Shown here piece by piece: positions 690-6,516 of a DNA stretch of 6,936 nucleotides. The stretch is taken from IMG/VR virus record IMGVR_UViG_2778261570_000005, positions 1 to 6,936 of that record; one strand, written 5' to 3'. Below the pieces are notes generated by a model. It was not told the DNA's origin. It made no database searches and saw only the letters and a program-made list of their open reading frames with translations. This stretch comes from a virus. Lineage: Duplodnaviria > Heunggongvirae > Uroviricota > Caudoviricetes. The translations under genes and the position numbers were made by a program. Position 1 is the stretch's first letter. Every line of letters begins with the position of its first letter.

Positions 690-2111
690 GTGCAGACCAT
701 CTCCACGGCAGTGATTGGCCTGGTGGGGACAGCGCCGGACGCCTCTGGTGGTGTGTGCGCTTCCGGCACAGCCGGCTCCTGGCTGCTGGGAACGGCGCTG
801 GATTTCACGGCGAAACAGGAAGGTCGGGCCGGTAATAAGATTTCGGTTGTTGCTGTGGCTGCCACAGAACAAAACGCGCAGACAGTGGCCTCGCTGAAAG
901 GTACGACCCTGACGATAACACTGGGGACGGACGAACACAGCCAGGTTAACGCCACGGCGGACCGTGTGACTGAAGTGGTGAATGCGCTGGGGGATTCGCC
1001 TGTGACGGTGGCTGTCAGCACTCTGAATGCAGGAGGCGCTGAAAATAAAGTGGTGTCGCCGTTCAGCCTGACGTTATCCGGCGGAGAAGATGAGGCGTTC
1101 CCGGTCAATACACCGGTGGTAGTGGCAGGGGCCATTACTCAGGCAGGGAAACTGGGCACAGCCGGAACATTATACCCGGCCCTGCGTGATATTTTTGACC
1201 AGACTGGTGCGCTGGTGATTGTGGTGCGCGCAGAAAGTAAAACAAAGGCGAAAGAGGCCGAACAGCGTGCGGCGGTGATTCAGGCCATGGAGGCGCTGAC
1301 AGAAAGTAAGGGCGTCACAGGCTATCAACCGCGCATCCTCATTGCCACGGGGTACAGTGAGGATGATGGCGTGGCAAAGGCGCTGGAAACGTATGCCGCG
1401 AAGTTGCGGGCTGTGGCCTATATTGACTCGCCCTCAATGGCAACGCCGCAGGATGTGGTTCAGCGGCGCGCGTCATTTGGCGGACGTGTGGAGCTGCTGC
1501 GTCCGCGCGTGTCAGTGACGGATGACAGCGGGCAAACGGTATTTCGTCCATATTCGGCTCGTGCTGCCGGGCTGCGTGCCCGTATTGATTATGAAAAAGG
1601 GTGGTGGTGGTCCAAATCAAACCAGGACGTGATGAATATCACCGGTCTGGAGCAGGTGGATACGTTTATTCTCGGGGAGCAGAACTGCACGGCAAACCTG
1701 CTGAACATGGAAAATATCTCCACCATTATTCGCCATGACGGTTTTAAACACTGGGGTAACCGTCTGTGCACATCCCACAGTCAGTGGCGCTTTGAACCGG
1801 TACGTCGCACTGCAGATGTGATTGAGGACAGTATCCAGGAGGCCATGTTGCCTTATGTCGATCGCCCGCTTGATCGGGATGTGGCAGACGACATTCTTGG
1901 CAGCATTAATGCCTATATGCGTCAGCTTAAAAATCTGGGTGCGATCCACGGTGGCAGCGCCTGGCTGAATGATGAACTGAATACAGCAGAAACCCTGGCT
2001 GCCGGGCAGTTGTATATCGATTATGACTTTGGGCCGAAGTCACCACTGGAGCGCCTGACACTGCGGGCGATGATTAACAATAAACTGGCGCTGGAGGAGC
2101 TGACGGTATGA
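690..2111 (+). CDS. contractile tail sheath protein (P2 gpFI family), apparently 5'-truncated with a fortuitous GTG start
   Basis: 473-codon ORF. N-terminal ISTAVIGLVGTAPDAS and C-terminal blocks (LRARIDYEKGWWWSKSNQDV, IIRHDGFKHWGNRLCTS, LYIDYDFGPKSPLERLTLRA) match conserved blocks of P2 FI-type sheaths as I recall them. The start is GTG with no Shine-Dalgarno within 5-12 nt, and an in-frame TGA lies at 678-680. Stop TGA 2109-2111 overlaps the tube start (ATGA). Confidence 0.85.
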   Translation: MQTISTAVIGLVGTAPDASGGVCASGTAGSWLLGTALDFTAKQEGRAGNKISVVAVAATEQNAQTVASLKGTTLTITLGTDEHSQVNATADRVTEVVNALGDSPVTVAVSTLNAGGAENKVVSPFSLTLSGGEDEAFPVNTPVVVAGAITQAGKLGTAGTLYPALRDIFDQTGALVIVVRAESKTKAKEAEQRAAVIQAMEALTESKGVTGYQPRILIATGYSEDDGVAKALETYAAKLRAVAYIDSPSMATPQDVVQRRASFGGRVELLRPRVSVTDDSGQTVFRPYSARAAGLRARIDYEKGWWWSKSNQDVMNITGLEQVDTFILGEQNCTANLLNMENISTIIRHDGFKHWGNRLCTSHSQWRFEPVRRTADVIEDSIQEAMLPYVDRPLDRDVADDILGSINAYMRQLKNLGAIHGGSAWLNDELNTAETLAAGQLYIDYDFGPKSPLERLTLRAMINNKLALEELTV

Positions 2112-2626
2112 TTACGGGTGAAAAAAAACTGTTGCGCGCATGGGCGTTATTTCTTCCTGGCGGGATCCGTCTTCAGGGGGCACATGAGTACACGCCGCCA
2201 GCCATTAATATCACGACAGTGGATATCAAAACCGGCGCAATGGATGCACCGGTGGCAGTGGATGACGGCATGGAAGCGCTGACCTGCTCATTTAAGATTT
2301 ATGGCTACGATGTTGCCATGCTGACCCTGCTGGGATTACAGGCCGGGCTTTATTCGCCGGAGATCGTTGTCCGCCAGGCTTACCGGGTGGGGAATGCGAC
2401 CAGCGGACAGGTGGAAACACTGCAGGGGATGATCACCAGTATCACGCCGGATGCGCGCCCGGCAACGTCACAGGCGGAGGCTTCGGTGACGGTGGAGATG
2501 TCGCTGAGTTATTACCGTCAGGCTGTAGATGGTCTGGAAACCATCTGCATTATTCCGGAGGAATTTGTTCGTCGTATTAACGGCGTTAATGTTCTGTCGG
2601 ATCTGAAAAAAATCATCCGGGTTTAA
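2108..2626 (+). CDS. tail tube protein (P2 gpFII family)
   Basis: 172 aa, the same length as P2 FII. C-terminal ...IIPEEFVRRINGVNVLSDLKKIIRV resembles the FII C-terminus (...KVNGVDRLEQHRRNIGL). GGAGGA at 2093-2098 lies upstream of the ATG at 2108. Start overlaps the sheath stop; position is immediately after the sheath gene. Confidence 0.8.
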   Translation: MITGEKKLLRAWALFLPGGIRLQGAHEYTPPAINITTVDIKTGAMDAPVAVDDGMEALTCSFKIYGYDVAMLTLLGLQAGLYSPEIVVRQAYRVGNATSGQVETLQGMITSITPDARPATSQAEASVTVEMSLSYYRQAVDGLETICIIPEEFVRRINGVNVLSDLKKIIRV

Positions 2627-2646
2627 TCCGGGGATCCTGTCATTCA

Positions 2647-2669
2647 GGCGGCTCAGGCCGCCTTTTTTT
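2647..2669 (+). terminator. rho-independent terminator between tube and chaperone genes
   Basis: Perfect 6-bp G/C stem GGCGGC (2647-2652), loop TCAG, GCCGCC (2657-2662), followed by T7 (2663-2669); 21 nt after the tube stop codon (TAA 2624-2626). Confidence 0.65.
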
Positions 2670-2680
2670 AGGAGATGCTT

Positions 2681-2983
2681 ATGTCGGAAAAAAACAGTGT
2701 TCCTGCCAGCTGCGTGGAAATTGTGTTATCCGTGCCGTATGTCACCGCATCAGGACAGACGATCACGCACGTCACTATGCGTGCGCCCACTGTCCGCGAT
2801 CGTCTGTTGCATCGCCGGAGTAACAAACCGGAAGCAGAGGCTGATCTGGATATGATTGCTGGTCTGTGTGGGATGGACGCGGCAGACATGATGAACATGG
2901 AAGCGTGTGATTACCTGGCCCTGGAGCGTCAGTTTAATGTTTTTTTGCTGCCGCCGGTCCGGCGGAAGAAGAAAGCATCCTGA
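2681..2983 (+). CDS. tail assembly chaperone (P2 gpE-like), zero-frame product
   Basis: Small ORF between tube and tape measure genes. GGAG at 2671-2674 is 6 nt upstream of the ATG at 2681; the track start at 2675 has zero spacing to that GGAG and is less likely. Ends ...QFNVFLLPPVRRKKKAS with the slippery T-run near its 3' end. Confidence 0.7.
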   Translation: MSEKNSVPASCVEIVLSVPYVTASGQTITHVTMRAPTVRDRLLHRRSNKPEAEADLDMIAGLCGMDAADMMNMEACDYLALERQFNVFLLPPVRRKKKAS

Positions 2984-3120
2984 CAGCGATACGGCGTGCC
3001 GGTGCCTGGTTCGGGTGGTCTCCCGGAGATGTGATGGCGCTGCCGTATACGGATTTTGTGGCAATGATGCTGGCGGAGTCGGAAGAGAGGAAGCTATGTT
3101 ATGGCAACGGTGGGCGATAA
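2681..3120 (+). CDS. tail assembly chaperone frameshift product (P2 gpE+E'-like), join(2681..2947,2947..3120) by -1 frameshift
   Basis: The -1 frame opens right after a TAA at 2935-2937 and runs to TAA at 3118-3120. It encodes protein-like sequence (AAAGPAEEESILTAIRRAGAWFGWSPGDVMALPYTDFVAMMLAESEERK...). The slippery heptamer T_TTT_TTG sits at 2941-2947. Predicted fusion is about 146 aa (P2 E+E' is 142 aa). Confidence 0.6.
2941..2947 (+). promoter_or_regulatory. programmed -1 ribosomal frameshift slippery site (TTTTTTG)
   Basis: Heptamer T TTT TTG in the zero frame of the chaperone gene, at the start of the open -1 frame; the same heptamer is the conserved slip site of P2-family E/E+E' genes. 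Confidence 0.6.
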
Positions 3121-4753
3121 CCTTAAAGCGAATATCCGGATCGGAGGCACGATAGATCCGTCGTGGAAAAAATCGGTTGATGGGTTGAAGCACGGATTAT
3201 CAGGAGCAACACAGGAAGTGGCTCGTCTGACACGCCAGCAGGACGTACTGAAACGAAAAATTCAGGCTGGCGTACTGGCAGGGCAGGATATTACCGATCT
3301 GCGAAAGCAGTATGAAAAGCTGAAACGGAAAATCAATGATGCTGCAGCGGAGCAGGAGCGATTTAATCGCCAGCTTGAACGGGCAGAGCGCCTGGAACGC
3401 TGGAAAGGACGGGCAGGGACATTTCTTAAAACCGGACTCGGACTCTCTGTTGGTTCCGGGCTGACGCTGGCAGCAGGTGCCAGCGCGGTACTGAACCGGA
3501 ATTCGGAAACGGCAGAGCGGGCAGGGATAGCCCGGAGTTACGGGGTGGATTACGAAACCTATGCGGCGTGGGATTCACTGGGCCGTCAGATGGGGTTAAA
3601 CGGCGAAAACATTGGTGATCTGTTTGAGGAATACCGGAACAAGGTTTTTGACGATGATAATGGTGCCACGGATAAAGGGGCCATTCAGGAGGTCTTTGGC
3701 AAACTGGGACTGAAAGCCGGGGTGATGGCAGGGAAAAGTAACCAGGAGCAGGTCGAATTTTTATTTGATCGCTTACTGCAGGTAGAGAATGAACAGGTGG
3801 CTGCCGGAATGGCAGATGCGTTGTTCGGTGGTGAGGCCAATAAAATTCTGACCTGGATGCGTCTGTCAGGGAAAACTTATCGGGAGCTTATCAGTGAGCA
3901 GAAACGCTATAACCTGGTGACAAAGGCAGGGGCTGATGGCGCAGTTCAGGGACATGTGGCACTGTCAAATCTCCGTAATGTTCTGAGTTCTTCCATTGAT
4001 GAAATCAGCGGACAGCTGGGTAATGAACTTGCCCCACATATTCAACAGGTGACGGATGACCTTGCGGCCTGGTTTAAGAATGGTGGGCTGGAAAAAATCC
4101 GGGCATTTATTCGTGATGATGCCCTGCCGGCGCTGATCGACATGGCTGCCTGGATGTGGAAATTTGGAAAAGTTCTGGCCGGAATAACGCAGAAAGCCAT
4201 TGAGTGGGGGCTGGCAGATGATCCGCGTCAGGACCGGCGAGAGGTACTGGAATATCTGGCAAAAATGGGGTCGCCGGAGCTGGCGAGAGCGGTGGCGCAG
4301 AAAAACGGCCAGGGAGAATGGTTTGATGAACTGCTCAGGCAAAATCCGGATCTGACGAAACAGGTTGTACAGGCTTATAAAGACACCCGCGGTTATCTCC
4401 CCTGGAATCATGACGATAAAAAGTTTGATGCATTTCTCGACCCTCTGCTGGGGCCGAAAGAAGAACCTGATTTTAAGGCGATAAAAGAGAAATCCCGCAC
4501 CTACATTGATGGACTTCATGCAGCAGATCCGGGGCAGGGTAATTCGGATCCCCTCTCAGCTCTTCAGTATACACCCGGCAGTGTCAGCCAGGTGGAAGTA
4601 AAACCCACATATCAGATACGGGCGGAATTTAACATCACTCAGAAGCCCGGCGAGGATGCCGGACAACTGGCAGACAGGGTAACGAAAAATCTGGGAGATA
4701 TTAATTTTGGTCAGCGTTCCCGCATGACTGATGGTGATGCATTCTGGGGGTGA
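3101..4753 (+). CDS. tail tape measure protein (P2 gpT-like)
   Basis: 550 aa, directly downstream of the frameshifted chaperone pair. N-terminal charged, coiled-coil-like region (QQDVLKRKIQ..., LRKQYEKLKRKINDAAAEQERFNRQLERAERLERWK) followed by a Gly-rich hydrophobic segment (GLGLSVGSGLTLAAGASAVL). GAGGAAG at 3086-3092 precedes the ATG at 3101. Confidence 0.8.
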   Translation: MATVGDNLKANIRIGGTIDPSWKKSVDGLKHGLSGATQEVARLTRQQDVLKRKIQAGVLAGQDITDLRKQYEKLKRKINDAAAEQERFNRQLERAERLERWKGRAGTFLKTGLGLSVGSGLTLAAGASAVLNRNSETAERAGIARSYGVDYETYAAWDSLGRQMGLNGENIGDLFEEYRNKVFDDDNGATDKGAIQEVFGKLGLKAGVMAGKSNQEQVEFLFDRLLQVENEQVAAGMADALFGGEANKILTWMRLSGKTYRELISEQKRYNLVTKAGADGAVQGHVALSNLRNVLSSSIDEISGQLGNELAPHIQQVTDDLAAWFKNGGLEKIRAFIRDDALPALIDMAAWMWKFGKVLAGITQKAIEWGLADDPRQDRREVLEYLAKMGSPELARAVAQKNGQGEWFDELLRQNPDLTKQVVQAYKDTRGYLPWNHDDKKFDAFLDPLLGPKEEPDFKAIKEKSRTYIDGLHAADPGQGNSDPLSALQYTPGSVSQVEVKPTYQIRAEFNITQKPGEDAGQLADRVTKNLGDINFGQRSRMTDGDAFWG

Positions 4754-4755
4754 AT

Positions 4756-5244
4756 ATGGTGGATTTGCTGGGCTGGGGCGTAAACCGGCTTGAGCGTGAA
4801 GCATGGGACGCGGTGGGATCATTAACGGATGTCGCCTCCCGCGTCATGCTGTCGTTTGGTGAGTTTGAATTCAGTATTGATACTGCTGCTTATAACGCCA
4901 TGAAGCGCACGATGGAATGGCGATGGGATGAACAACAGCTTATCGGAAAAAACGACCTGCTGCAGTATACCGGCAAGGGGGCCAGAACAATAACCCTTGA
5001 AGGTATGGCGCATGCAGGATTTCGTGACGGTGTGGGAATGGACGCTCTTGATACACTGGTTCAGATGGTGGATGACAATCCGGCCCCGCATCTTCTGGTC
5101 TCGAGCACAGGTGATGTGATGGGGTATTTCGTGGCAACTGCCTATTCAGATAACACCACGTCCTTTCTTCCCGGCGGTGCGCCGAAGAACAAAACGTTCA
5201 CACTGGAGCTGAAATACTATGGCGAAAAACTGGCGGACCACTGA
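4756..5244 (+). CDS. tail protein, P2 gpU-like (tail terminator/sheath-completion-type)
   Basis: Size matches gpU (about 160 aa). Internal blocks YTGKGARTITLEGM, LLVSSTGDVMGYFV and KTFTLELKYY resemble P2 gpU as I recall it (YTGEGAETVTLTG, PLVSGSGRVLGTWV, KIDFTLEL). Start ambiguous: GTG at 4750 (track) or ATG at 4756 with GGGGG 5 nt upstream; the ATG is preferred. Confidence 0.8.
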   Translation: MVDLLGWGVNRLEREAWDAVGSLTDVASRVMLSFGEFEFSIDTAAYNAMKRTMEWRWDEQQLIGKNDLLQYTGKGARTITLEGMAHAGFRDGVGMDALDTLVQMVDDNPAPHLLVSSTGDVMGYFVATAYSDNTTSFLPGGAPKNKTFTLELKYYGEKLADH

Positions 5245-5437
5245 CGGCGATATGCTGGATGATATCTGTCAGAGACACTATGGCAGCGCCGGACTTAACC
5301 AGTCACTGGCGGCGGTACTGGAAGCCAATCCCGGACTGGCTGATATTGGTCCGGTCTATCCGGCGGGAGTGGAAATCGTGTTGCCGGACTGGGTGTATGA
5401 ACCGGAGGAAAAGGAGACGTTTCAGCTATGGGACTGA
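5219..5437 (+). CDS. tail protein X, P2 gpX-like (LysM-like)
   Basis: 72 aa. DGDMLDDICQRHYG...LEANPGLADIGPVYPAGVEIVLPD aligns with P2 gpX (QGDTLDAICVRYYG...LAANPGLAELGAVLPHGTAVELPD). Overlaps gpU 3' end by 26 nt and the gpD start by 10 nt. Confidence 0.8.
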   Translation: MAKNWRTTDGDMLDDICQRHYGSAGLNQSLAAVLEANPGLADIGPVYPAGVEIVLPDWVYEPEEKETFQLWD

Positions 5438-6516
5438 ATGAGTATCAGCCGGATTTCAGCCTGACAGCAGAGGGGGAGGATATCACGAAGGCCATAAAGC
5501 GGGGGCTGGCTGAACTGCGTTATACCGATAATGGTGCTGCCACAAAGCGCTCCGATGAACTGATGATAACCCTGTTCAGTGAGACGATGGCGCTGCCACC
5601 AAAAGGCGCAGTATTAACGCTGGGACTGGGATTCAACGGAAAACTGGTAAATAAAGGCAGCTTTACCGTCTGCCAGGTGGCAAGTGGCGGTCCTCCCCGC
5701 CGGATCACCATTTATGCCACCGCAGCCCCCATGAATGCGTCAAAACATGGCGCAGACGTGACCGCACTGAAAACCCGGGCTTTCAGCGATATCACACTGG
5801 GCGACCTGGTGAAAACCATCGCCACTGAAAATAATCTGGTGGCGCGCGTCTCATCGGTGCTTGCTGATATTCATATCCCGTGGGTGATGCAGTCATCAGA
5901 ATCTGATGCTGCCCTCTTGTCCCGCATTGCAGGTATGTACGGCGCCACCAGTAAACCGACCAATGGCTACTGGTTATTTCTGGAATACGGGGCATCACAA
6001 AGTACGGGGGGCAGAAATGCGCCTGAGATAACCATTATGCCGGGTATGGTATCAGACTGGGATTATCGTGAAGGTGAGCGACAGGGCGCTGCGGGTGGTG
6101 CGAAGGGGGATAAAAAGAGCGGGAAAGTTGGGGTCCGGTATTTTGATGCCCGTGACGGACGCACACGTGAAGTTAAAGTTGACGTGGAGTCAACAGATAA
6201 GCGGCATCCGTTTACCCAGCCTGACCATGGCACCGCAAAACACTGTGCAGAGTCGAAGGTTAAACGTGTGCAGAAAGCCGGACGCCAGATGACGATAACG
6301 TTGCCCTGCAGGCCGGAACTGCTGAAAGCAGGGGCGGAGATGCGTTTTGTCACGCAGGGATTTGGTGTGCGTGAGGACCATCACTGGCAGGCTGAGTCTG
6401 TGGAGTTTTCACTGGTACCGGGACAGGGATTTACGCTGAATCTGTCACTGACCACGGATATTTCTGCAAAGGGGAAAGCCAGTGGCAAGAAAAAAGGCGT
6501 CAATTATTTTGGTTAA
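5428..6516 (+). CDS. tail late control protein D (P2 gpD-like, baseplate hub-type)
   Basis: 362 aa. Blocks GAVLTLGLGFNGKLVNKGSFTV, TLGDLVKTIATENNLVARV and SESDAALLSRIAGMYGA correspond to P2 gpD (GAVLTVHIGWQGE...GKFTV, TLGAIVKAIAARNRLEARV, ESDAKFLTRLADRYGA). AAGGAG at 5410-5415 is upstream. Confidence 0.85.
   Translation: MGLNEYQPDFSLTAEGEDITKAIKRGLAELRYTDNGAATKRSDELMITLFSETMALPPKGAVLTLGLGFNGKLVNKGSFTVCQVASGGPPRRITIYATAAPMNASKHGADVTALKTRAFSDITLGDLVKTIATENNLVARVSSVLADIHIPWVMQSSESDAALLSRIAGMYGATSKPTNGYWLFLEYGASQSTGGRNAPEITIMPGMVSDWDYREGERQGAAGGAKGDKKSGKVGVRYFDARDGRTREVKVDVESTDKRHPFTQPDHGTAKHCAESKVKRVQKAGRQMTITLPCRPELLKAGAEMRFVTQGFGVREDHHWQAESVEFSLVPGQGFTLNLSLTTDISAKGKASGKKKGVNYFG

Follow-up and report, generated by a model that had tools for sequence, protein, structure and literature searches.

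The question raised by this locus is whether the small gene located between the tail tube and tape measure genes encodes a single protein, or whether a second, longer protein is made from the same start when ribosomes shift into the -1 frame near its 3' end. The window (the whole stretch of 6,936 nucleotides analysed) contains a P2-like contractile-tail module on the + strand, in which the sheath, tube, chaperone, tape measure, gpU, X and gpD genes are recognized from the ORF list and Pfam scans. The features are listed in Table 1. It is highly probable from the evidence given below that the small gene encodes the chaperone pair of a P2-like contractile-tail prophage, and that this pair is expressed by programmed -1 ribosomal frameshifting.

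Table 1. Features of the tail module and of the proposed frameshift site (positions in the window)
Feature	Position	Strand	Remarks
Sheath gene	690-2111	+	PF04984/PF17482
Tail tube gene (FII-like)	2108-2626	+	PF04985 Phage_tube, E = 3e-22
Tail assembly chaperone (gpE-like, 100 aa)	2681-2983	+	Pfam PF10109 Phage_TAC_7, phrog_166
+1-frame track ORF, spurious	2907-3155	+	mod3 = 0; GTG start; 82 codons
SD-like GGAG	2923-2926	+	14 nt upstream of the heptamer; invariant in 35 close copies
TAA stop, -1 frame	2935-2937	+	Upstream bound on the shift
Slippery heptamer T_TTT_TTG, proposed -1 slip site	2941-2947	+	Zero-frame codons TTT 2942-2944, TTG 2945-2947
-1 extension (E'-like, 57 codons + TAA 3118-3120)	2947-3120	+	Peptide AAAGPAEEESILTAIRRAGAWFGWSPGDVMALPYTDFVAMMLAESEERKLCYGNGGR
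Small GC hairpin CCGCCG-GUC-CGGCGG	2951-2965	+	Possible, unsupported stimulator; 3 nt after the heptamer
Tape measure protein gene (550 aa)	3101-4753	+	Position between chaperone and gpU; phrog_3654 match
gpU gene	4750-5244	+	PF06995
Tail protein X gene	5219-5437	+	PF05489
gpD gene	5428-6516	+	PF05954

The zero-frame product matches PF10109 with an E-value of 2.1e-12 and 47.3 bits (cut-off 25) over profile positions 2-78 of 79, and P2 E gives 47.5 bits on the same profile. It also matches phrog_166, a family of tail proteins, with an E-value of 1.6e-22, and RefSeq names the equivalent 303-nt CDS in relatives 'phage tail assembly protein'. The ORF list puts the start of this gene at ATG 2675. 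Because the Shine-Dalgarno sequence AGGAG (2670-2674) abuts this codon, the real start is ATG 2681, in agreement with RefSeq in relatives. The zero-frame product ends with ...QFNVFLLPPVRRKKKAS at TGA 2981-2983. The tube gene is the upstream neighbour of the chaperone gene and defines the canonical position of the chaperone. The tape measure protein matches phrog_3654 over its full length and several tape-measure PHROGs weakly (E-values down to 4.5e-9), and its ATG at 3101 is preceded by the SD sequence GAGAGGAAG. The chaperone gene thus has the place of a gpE-pair gene in a contractile-tail module, with the tube gene (FII) before it and the tape measure gene (T) after it.

The zero-frame codons around the proposed slip site are ...AAT GTT TTT TTG CTG..., and this split, GT|T TTT TTG, makes the site a true X_XXY_YYZ heptamer in register. 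The heptamer is located 40 nt before the zero-frame stop, and the run of T to which it belongs is actually 7 long (2940-2946). Because the TAA at 2935-2937 closes the -1 frame upstream, the frame must change within 2938-2983. The spacing between the upstream stop and the heptamer, tight in the window, is not kept in all relatives: it is 30 nt in two of the close ones and 57-117 nt in Cedecea-like loci. The -1 frame (positions mod3 = 1) is open from 2938 to the TAA at 3118-3120, with 57 codons after re-reading of G2947. The predicted fusion CDS, join(2681..2947,2947..3120), encodes 146 residues, ...QFNVFL-AAAGPAEEESILTAIRRAGAWFGWSPGDVMALPYTDFVAMMLAESEERKLCYGNGGR, and overlaps the tape measure gene by 20 nt. 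The sequence-only reading had placed the heptamer 3 nt past a -1 stop and the end of the -1 product 20 nt inside the tape measure gene, and both placements, with the codon register, are verified.

The pattern in this single sequence alone is within chance and is not compelling. A single TTTTTTG is present in the window, where shuffles predict 1.31, and at 8% of the codon positions in the genes of the window the -1 frame stays open for 57 codons or more. The seven genes contain four in-register slippery heptamers, among which only that at 2941-2947 is located near the 3' end of a gene with a -1 frame that passes the zero-frame stop. When the comparative evidence is counted, the pattern is judged, from sequence, to be far beyond chance.

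Among 5,426 complete genomes of E. coli, 74 contain prophages that match the region with identities of 88-98%; a blastn search of the phage collection with the region gives no match. Three sets of relatives were compared. The close set consists of 35 copies, of which 25 are unique within the 520 nt analysed, with chaperone identities of 91-99%, the mid-tier set of five loci (Trabulsiella, 56%, and Cedecea-like, 54% identity), and the distant set of about 42 loci, mostly from Pseudomonas, at roughly 30% identity. TTTTTTG is invariant in the 35 close copies, and the 57-codon -1 frame is uninterrupted in all of them (25/25 unique sequences). Trabulsiella has TTTTTTG followed by a 55-codon extension, and the Cedecea-like loci have TTTTTTA followed by 59 codons. 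The peptides encoded by the extensions show clear homology across the tiers (RRAGAWFGWSPGDVMALPYTDF, RRAGAWFGWQPSEVMALPLKDF and RRLGSWFGWQPDQILAMPFETF), with the pattern RR.G.WFGW.P...A.P...F in the relatives at 54-56% identity. In a more distant metagenomic relative (L164), the -1 extension is kept and CAA_AAG alone is available in place of the T-run; the heptamer is therefore not universal in the family. A 975-nt Logan contig (L165) was left out as uninformative; other indels break its chaperone ORF, and its T-run is shorter by one base.

The substitution pattern among the 25 unique close sequences was analysed over 2984-3100, where neither the zero frame of the chaperone nor the tape measure ORF overlaps. 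The pN/pS value is 0.28 in the -1 frame, 1.55 in the zero frame and 2.02 in the +1 frame. For 2984-3030, which is upstream of any -1 start codon, it is 0.13 in the -1 frame, as compared with 4.0 and 3.0 in the other frames. The variable columns are -1-frame third codon positions in 25 of 40 cases. As controls, the chaperone body (2690-2934) gives 0.08 in the zero frame and the start of the tape measure gene gives 0.24 in its own frame. These values indicate that the -1 frame is under purifying selection, even upstream of any possible start codon. Because this conserved coding sequence has no start of its own and begins 3 nt after a stop, it can be reached only from the chaperone frame.

It is very improbable that the -1 ORF is instead an independent small gene, which is translated from its own start codon and needs no recoding. 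PGAP calls a 45-aa -1-frame ORF in some relatives, and databases hold fragments of 41-61 aa. An example of such an orphan call is WP_156841731.1 (45 aa, 984-1121 of locus L002), which starts at a Thr-to-Met variant codon; the start codon used in those relatives is ACA (Thr) in the window. The called starts vary among relatives, as is typical of gene callers that take any available Met. The earliest ATG, GTG or TTG in the -1 frame of the window is at 3031, within the conserved core WFGWSPGDVM and without an SD sequence, and the strongest purifying selection in the -1 frame acts upstream of this codon, in the region with a pN/pS value of 0.13.

The other open frame across the site, ORF 2907-3155, has 82 codons and a GTG start, and could on this account be proposed to be the true gene in the interval between chaperone and tape measure. 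This proposal is effectively refuted. The ORF has no family match in Pfam, NCBIfam or PHROGs, its product is rich in Cys and Arg (6 Cys and 12 Arg in 82 aa), and its GTG start is changed to GCG in 3 of the 25 unique close relatives. In-frame stops interrupt it in 14 of these 25 relatives and number 3-5 per mid-tier locus, and with a pN/pS value of 2.0 it evolves like non-coding sequence. These stops and the unconstrained evolution indicate that the ORF is spurious. RefSeq annotation of relatives calls neither this ORF nor a joined product; it contains the short chaperone and, in some genomes, also a 'hypothetical protein' of 45 aa in the -1 frame. Separately, the antisense ORF 2750-3193 is rejected for its internal stops in 5 of the 25 relatives. 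The earlier views that the -1 frame is protein-like up to 3120 and that the track ORF is non-coding and in the wrong frame are thus borne out, and the heptamer and the -1 frame, whose conservation in homologues had been proposed as a check, are conserved down to about 55% identity if TTTTTTG and TTTTTTA are taken together.

The frame may in principle be changed in the mRNA rather than on the ribosome, if RNA polymerase slips on the run of seven T and adds an extra U to a fraction of the transcripts. Homopolymer runs can give transcriptional slippage (PMC5009743), and seven consecutive T are present at 2940-2946 both in the window and in close relatives. Nevertheless, this explanation is improbable, because the Trabulsiella relatives and P2 have only six T and yet retain X_XXY_YYZ exactly in register. 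The codon register and the G or A after the run are conserved, and the length of the run varies. Efficient transcriptional slippage in E. coli takes longer runs, of about nine or more. The junction of the long product could be ...VFL/AAAG (peptide QFNVFLAAAGPAEEESILTAIR) upon simultaneous slippage of both tRNAs, and could be ...VFF/AAAG (peptide QFNVFFAAAGPAEEESILTAIR) upon P-site slippage or upon insertion of an extra U in the mRNA.

Two candidate stimulators of ribosomal slippage are present around the heptamer. The hairpin at 2951-2965 has 6 bp, and its fold is no better than those of shuffles (z = 0.51 for 63 nt; z = -1.78 for 171 nt). It is weakened in 3 close copies by a change of CCG to CAG, and is absent in Cedecea-like loci and in P2. 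Lacking both significance and conservation, the hairpin is rejected as a stimulator. Nor is a stable and conserved structure of the dnaX/IS type, hairpin or pseudoknot, found 5-9 nt downstream of the heptamer, and the whole window gives no Rfam match at E <= 1. Downstream hairpins are reportedly absent at P2-type sites (PMC3091744). The GGAG sequence at 2923-2926 is invariant in the close copies while nearby synonymous sites vary, and it is also present in mid-tier loci; it might act from upstream as a stimulator like that of dnaX. GGAG encodes a conserved Leu-Glu, and its constraint is therefore inseparable from coding; a stimulatory role is thus hypothetical.

The extension alone gives no usable family match in Pfam, NCBIfam or PHROGs up to E <= 10. 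PF06528 (Phage_P2_GpE) matches 3 of 12 extension peptides of relatives, with a best E-value of 0.029 that is below the 23-bit cut-off, and P0009 matches it with an E-value of 0.068, also below this cut-off; P2 E+E' scores 76 bits. When the alignment of the extension family is compared with the P2 E' core by hhalign, the probability is 79%, with an E-value of 1.5e-5 over 29 columns. This result suggests that homology of the E' domain between the family of the window and P2 is likely, although unproven. A word-indexed protein search with the extension gives only 5 E. coli 'hypothetical' fragments. An exhaustive HMMER search gives 13 matches, six of which are short -1-frame fragments of relatives; the long multi-stretch matches P0007 and P0013 are unrelated tandem-repeat proteins and were rejected, and the remaining five long multi-stretch matches are presumed to be tandem-repeat proteins as well. 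A sequence search of the PDB gives nothing meaningful, and a search of IMG/VR with the P2 chaperone gives 80 near-identical P2 loci, which are too uniform for a diverse E' profile.

The copy in the window does not represent an intact prophage. Positions 1-689 are the end of an IS66-family element that is 99.9% identical to other copies, and the match with the intact prophage sets in 53 nt into the sheath gene. The prophage of E. coli A36 (NZ_CP028739, 1.537-1.545 Mb) is an example of an intact relative. Because the first 18 sheath codons are absent, as is the upstream promoter region, this copy of the tail operon, cut by the IS66-like element, is probably no longer working. It may be asked whether the site is then an inactive relic, in which the sequence is intact, the operon is dead in this genome and no frameshift product is made here. 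The loss of the sheath codons and of the promoter region to the IS66-family end argues for this explanation. The chaperone, the heptamer, the extension and all downstream tail ORFs are intact, which argues against it, and an IS element can supply outward transcription. The relic explanation is given somewhat less than an even chance, and it bears on expression in one host, leaving the identity of the element untouched.

If the site functions as a programmed -1 frameshift site, the expression of the two products would proceed as follows. Most ribosomes would read 2681-2983 and release the 100-aa gpE-like chaperone. A minority would slip back by 1 nt on T_TTT_TTG, where tRNA-Phe and tRNA-Leu would re-pair on UUU_UUU, and would read the -1 frame from G2947 to the TAA at 3118-3120 to give the 146-aa E+E'-like protein. 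This long product would have the same N-terminus as the short one and a different C-terminal domain of 57 residues. By analogy with lambda G/GT and P2 E/E+E', the N-terminal part common to both products would coat the tape measure protein and the extension would recruit the tube subunit, so that a fixed low ratio of the long to the short product would control initiation of the tail tube. Neither product would be retained in the virion, again by analogy. We infer the occurrence and efficiency of the slip and the binding partners of each part from these known systems.

The arrangement is ordinary and well known in phages, and annotation pipelines miss it here. Annotation of join(2681..2947,2947..3120) corrects three gene calls. 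It also adds a divergent E'-like sequence family, which could extend the Pfam GpE model, and would provide a further natural example of T_TTT_TTG as a tail-chaperone slip site without conserved downstream structure. The understanding of frameshifting and of tail assembly is unchanged by this example, which is unsurprising to a specialist.

Three known systems are compared with this locus. The P2 pair gpE/gpE+E' was reportedly studied by Christie et al. in 2002, the lambda pair gpG/gpGT by Levin et al. in 1993 and by Xu, Hendrix and Duda in 2004, 2013 and 2014, and the -2 frameshift extension of Mu gp41 by Xu et al. in 2004. In the P2 record NC_001895 (P2p25/P2p26), E occupies 431-706 of the P2 locus L082 and E+E' is annotated as a join at '-1 translational frameshift'. 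The slip site of P2 is GGT_TTT_TTG, the extension has 57 codons and ends 8 nt inside T, and E+E' scores as Phage_TAC_7 plus Phage_P2_GpE. According to PMC3091744, which cites Christie 2002 and Xu 2004, no hairpin follows the TTTTTTG of P2, at which the -1 shift yields E, of 91 aa, and E+E', of 142 aa; T7G and T7C slip variants exist in other P2-like phages (PMC3931495).

The window has the identical T_TTT_TTG, read in the same register, towards the 3' end of a Phage_TAC_7 gene between the tube and tape measure genes, followed by a -1 extension of the same 57 codons, which has neither a start codon nor an RBS and stops a few nt into the tape measure gene. When the full-length sequences are aligned, F-L at the slip site and the F-x-W-x-P motif of P2 E+E' share columns with those of the family of the window. 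As far as can be judged from its nucleotides, the locus agrees with the P2-type arrangement in gene position, chaperone family, heptamer and -1 frame, as the sequence-only reading had proposed. The differences are in detail. The identity over the fusion is about 25%, and the extension of the window is below the threshold of PF06528 (GpE), unlike that of P2 E+E'. The overlap with the tape measure gene is 20 nt in the window and 8 nt in P2, and the zero-frame tail past the slip site is 12 residues in the window and 6 in P2. The window has a tail X gene between U and D, unlike P2, and its tape measure protein has 550 residues, as compared with about 815 in P2.

The lambda gpG/gpGT pair resembles the predicted pair of the window in its common N-terminus, -1 shift, fixed ratio and position between the major tail subunit and tape measure genes. 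The two systems differ in that they have no sequence similarity, that lambda slips on G_GGA_AAG and that the lambda tail is non-contractile. In lambda, the domain common to G and GT binds the tape measure protein and the T domain binds the major tail subunit; both proteins are chaperones that are absent from the virion (PMC5009743). The G:GT molar ratio is about 30:1, and the efficiency of P2-like sites is 2-3 times higher (PMC5009743). A shift of the G/GT type is conserved among long-tailed phages and has a defined mechanism (PMC5009743).

Mu gp41 is also a Phage_TAC_7 protein ('E, or 41 or 14'), is encoded between the tube and tape measure genes, and has an extension ORF downstream of the chaperone stop. 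The -2 shift of Mu is documented (PMC5009743). The Mu extension is in the +1/-2 frame after CGG_GGG_CGA, whereas that of the window is in the -1 frame and follows a T-run. As to the frame of the extension, the Pseudomonas-tier relatives resemble Mu. About 40 of these loci have a homologous extension (…LGFSSAEIMSMSFSDMIWWL…) in the +1 frame, beginning at the stop of the zero frame, with CTT_TGA (33), TTT_TGA (5) or GTT_TGA (2) as the last sense codon and the stop. Substitution counts in these loci reveal constraint on the zero frame up to the stop and on the +1 frame after it.

A tentative view, held to be somewhat doubtful, is that the 57-residue extension represents an E'-like domain family missed by Pfam, NCBIfam and PHROGs, and that the route to the extension has been switched within the chaperone family. 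Enterobacterial prophages have the -1 arrangement at T6G or T6A, one metagenomic relative apparently has an A_AAG-type site, and the Pseudomonas-type loci pass from NTT_TGA into the +1 frame. If this view is true, the tail chaperone of the Pseudomonas type would be an example of +1 shifting coupled to termination in the manner of RF2, or of -2 shifting in the manner of Mu, the latter adding one residue. Because slip sites and frames differ among the relatives, Mu and the metagenomic locus that lacks the T-run, the two-product architecture appears to be older than any one slip site. Xu et al. are said to have proposed likewise that this architecture predates the individual slip sites.

Public 'hypothetical proteins' of 41-61 aa (P0003-P0005, P0009, P0010 and P0016), which were matched in searches with the -1 extension peptide, are fragments of this extension called from any available Met. 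The N-terminus of P0009, MFFAAAG, lies directly on the T-run. These fragments should be joined into one ribosomal-slippage CDS. The fragment in the relative locus L002 and further features are listed in the table.

Features of the chaperone region and in-register heptamers
Feature	Locus	Position	Details
Heptamer A_AAA_AAA	window	2122-2128	tube gene codons 5-7
Intrinsic-terminator-like hairpin	window	2646-2669	AGGCGGC-TCAG-GCCGCCT, then T7; in the 54-nt tube-chaperone gap
Heptamer A_AAA_AAC	window	2689	chaperone codons 3-5
Heptamer A_AAA_AAC	window	4947	gpU
-1 extension fragment	L002	984-1121	equivalent to window 2983-3120

The region at positions 2947-2983 is dual-coded: the zero-frame tail is Lys-rich (RRKKK, AAG AAG AAA) and the start of the extension is Glu-rich (EEE, GAA GAA GAA). 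Both are encoded by one purine run, read in different frames; the short chaperone may therefore have acquired its basic C-terminal tail as a by-product of this overlap, or vice versa. The homologous -1-frame extension (…LRRLGQWFSWPPSEVMNLPY…) is kept at positions 2440-2626 of L164, a metagenomic relative with the same module order as the window. The T-run is absent from the chaperone locus of L164, and CAA_AAG, an A_AAG-type site, is the sole slip-prone motif in its 40-nt shift window. The in-register A_AAA_AAA of the tube gene is probably incidental, because the -1 frame is open there for just 19 codons.

The hairpin between the tube and chaperone genes is kept in the close relatives, with two compensatory changes in one of them (GGCAGC...GCTGCC). 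Cedecea-like loci have another hairpin followed by T6 at the same position, and the hairpins of Trabulsiella and P2 lack a T-run. The hairpin of the window is plausibly a partial terminator, which would reduce expression of the chaperone and tape measure relative to that of the sheath and tube.

The putative tape-measure protein (3101-4753) is short, with 550 aa as compared with ~815 aa in P2. Pfam and NCBIfam give no tape-measure match; the protein matches phrog_3654 ('unknown function') over its full length, and most of its RefSeq copies are annotated as 'hypothetical protein'. Its identity as a tape measure is based only on position and weak PHROG matches.

Positions 1-689 represent the end of an IS66-family element, with 99.9% identity to copies in other E. 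coli genomes that are annotated beside 'IS66-like element accessory protein TnpA'. Homology to the intact prophage starts 53 nt within the sheath gene, indicating that the first 18 codons of the sheath ORF (MPGLHGVETIELTTGTVA) and the upstream region are missing. The GTG at 690, its apparent start, is a Val codon from the interior of the gene. This prophage copy is probably defective.

In the Pseudomonas-tier chaperone relatives (L006-L017 and L054-L081; ~30% identity), the homologous extension occupies the +1 (or -2) frame, starting precisely at the zero-frame stop (~2768, locus coordinates). Constraint is on the zero frame upstream of this stop and on the +1 frame downstream. The stop context is NTT_TGA (CTT_TGA in 33, TTT_TGA in 5 and GTT_TGA in 2); in L052 and L053, the chaperone instead ends in GCG_TGA, with an upstream GGG_G run. 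The NTT_TGA context resembles the CUU_UGA +1 site of RF2, and the +1 (or -2) extension frame parallels the documented -2 shift of Mu.
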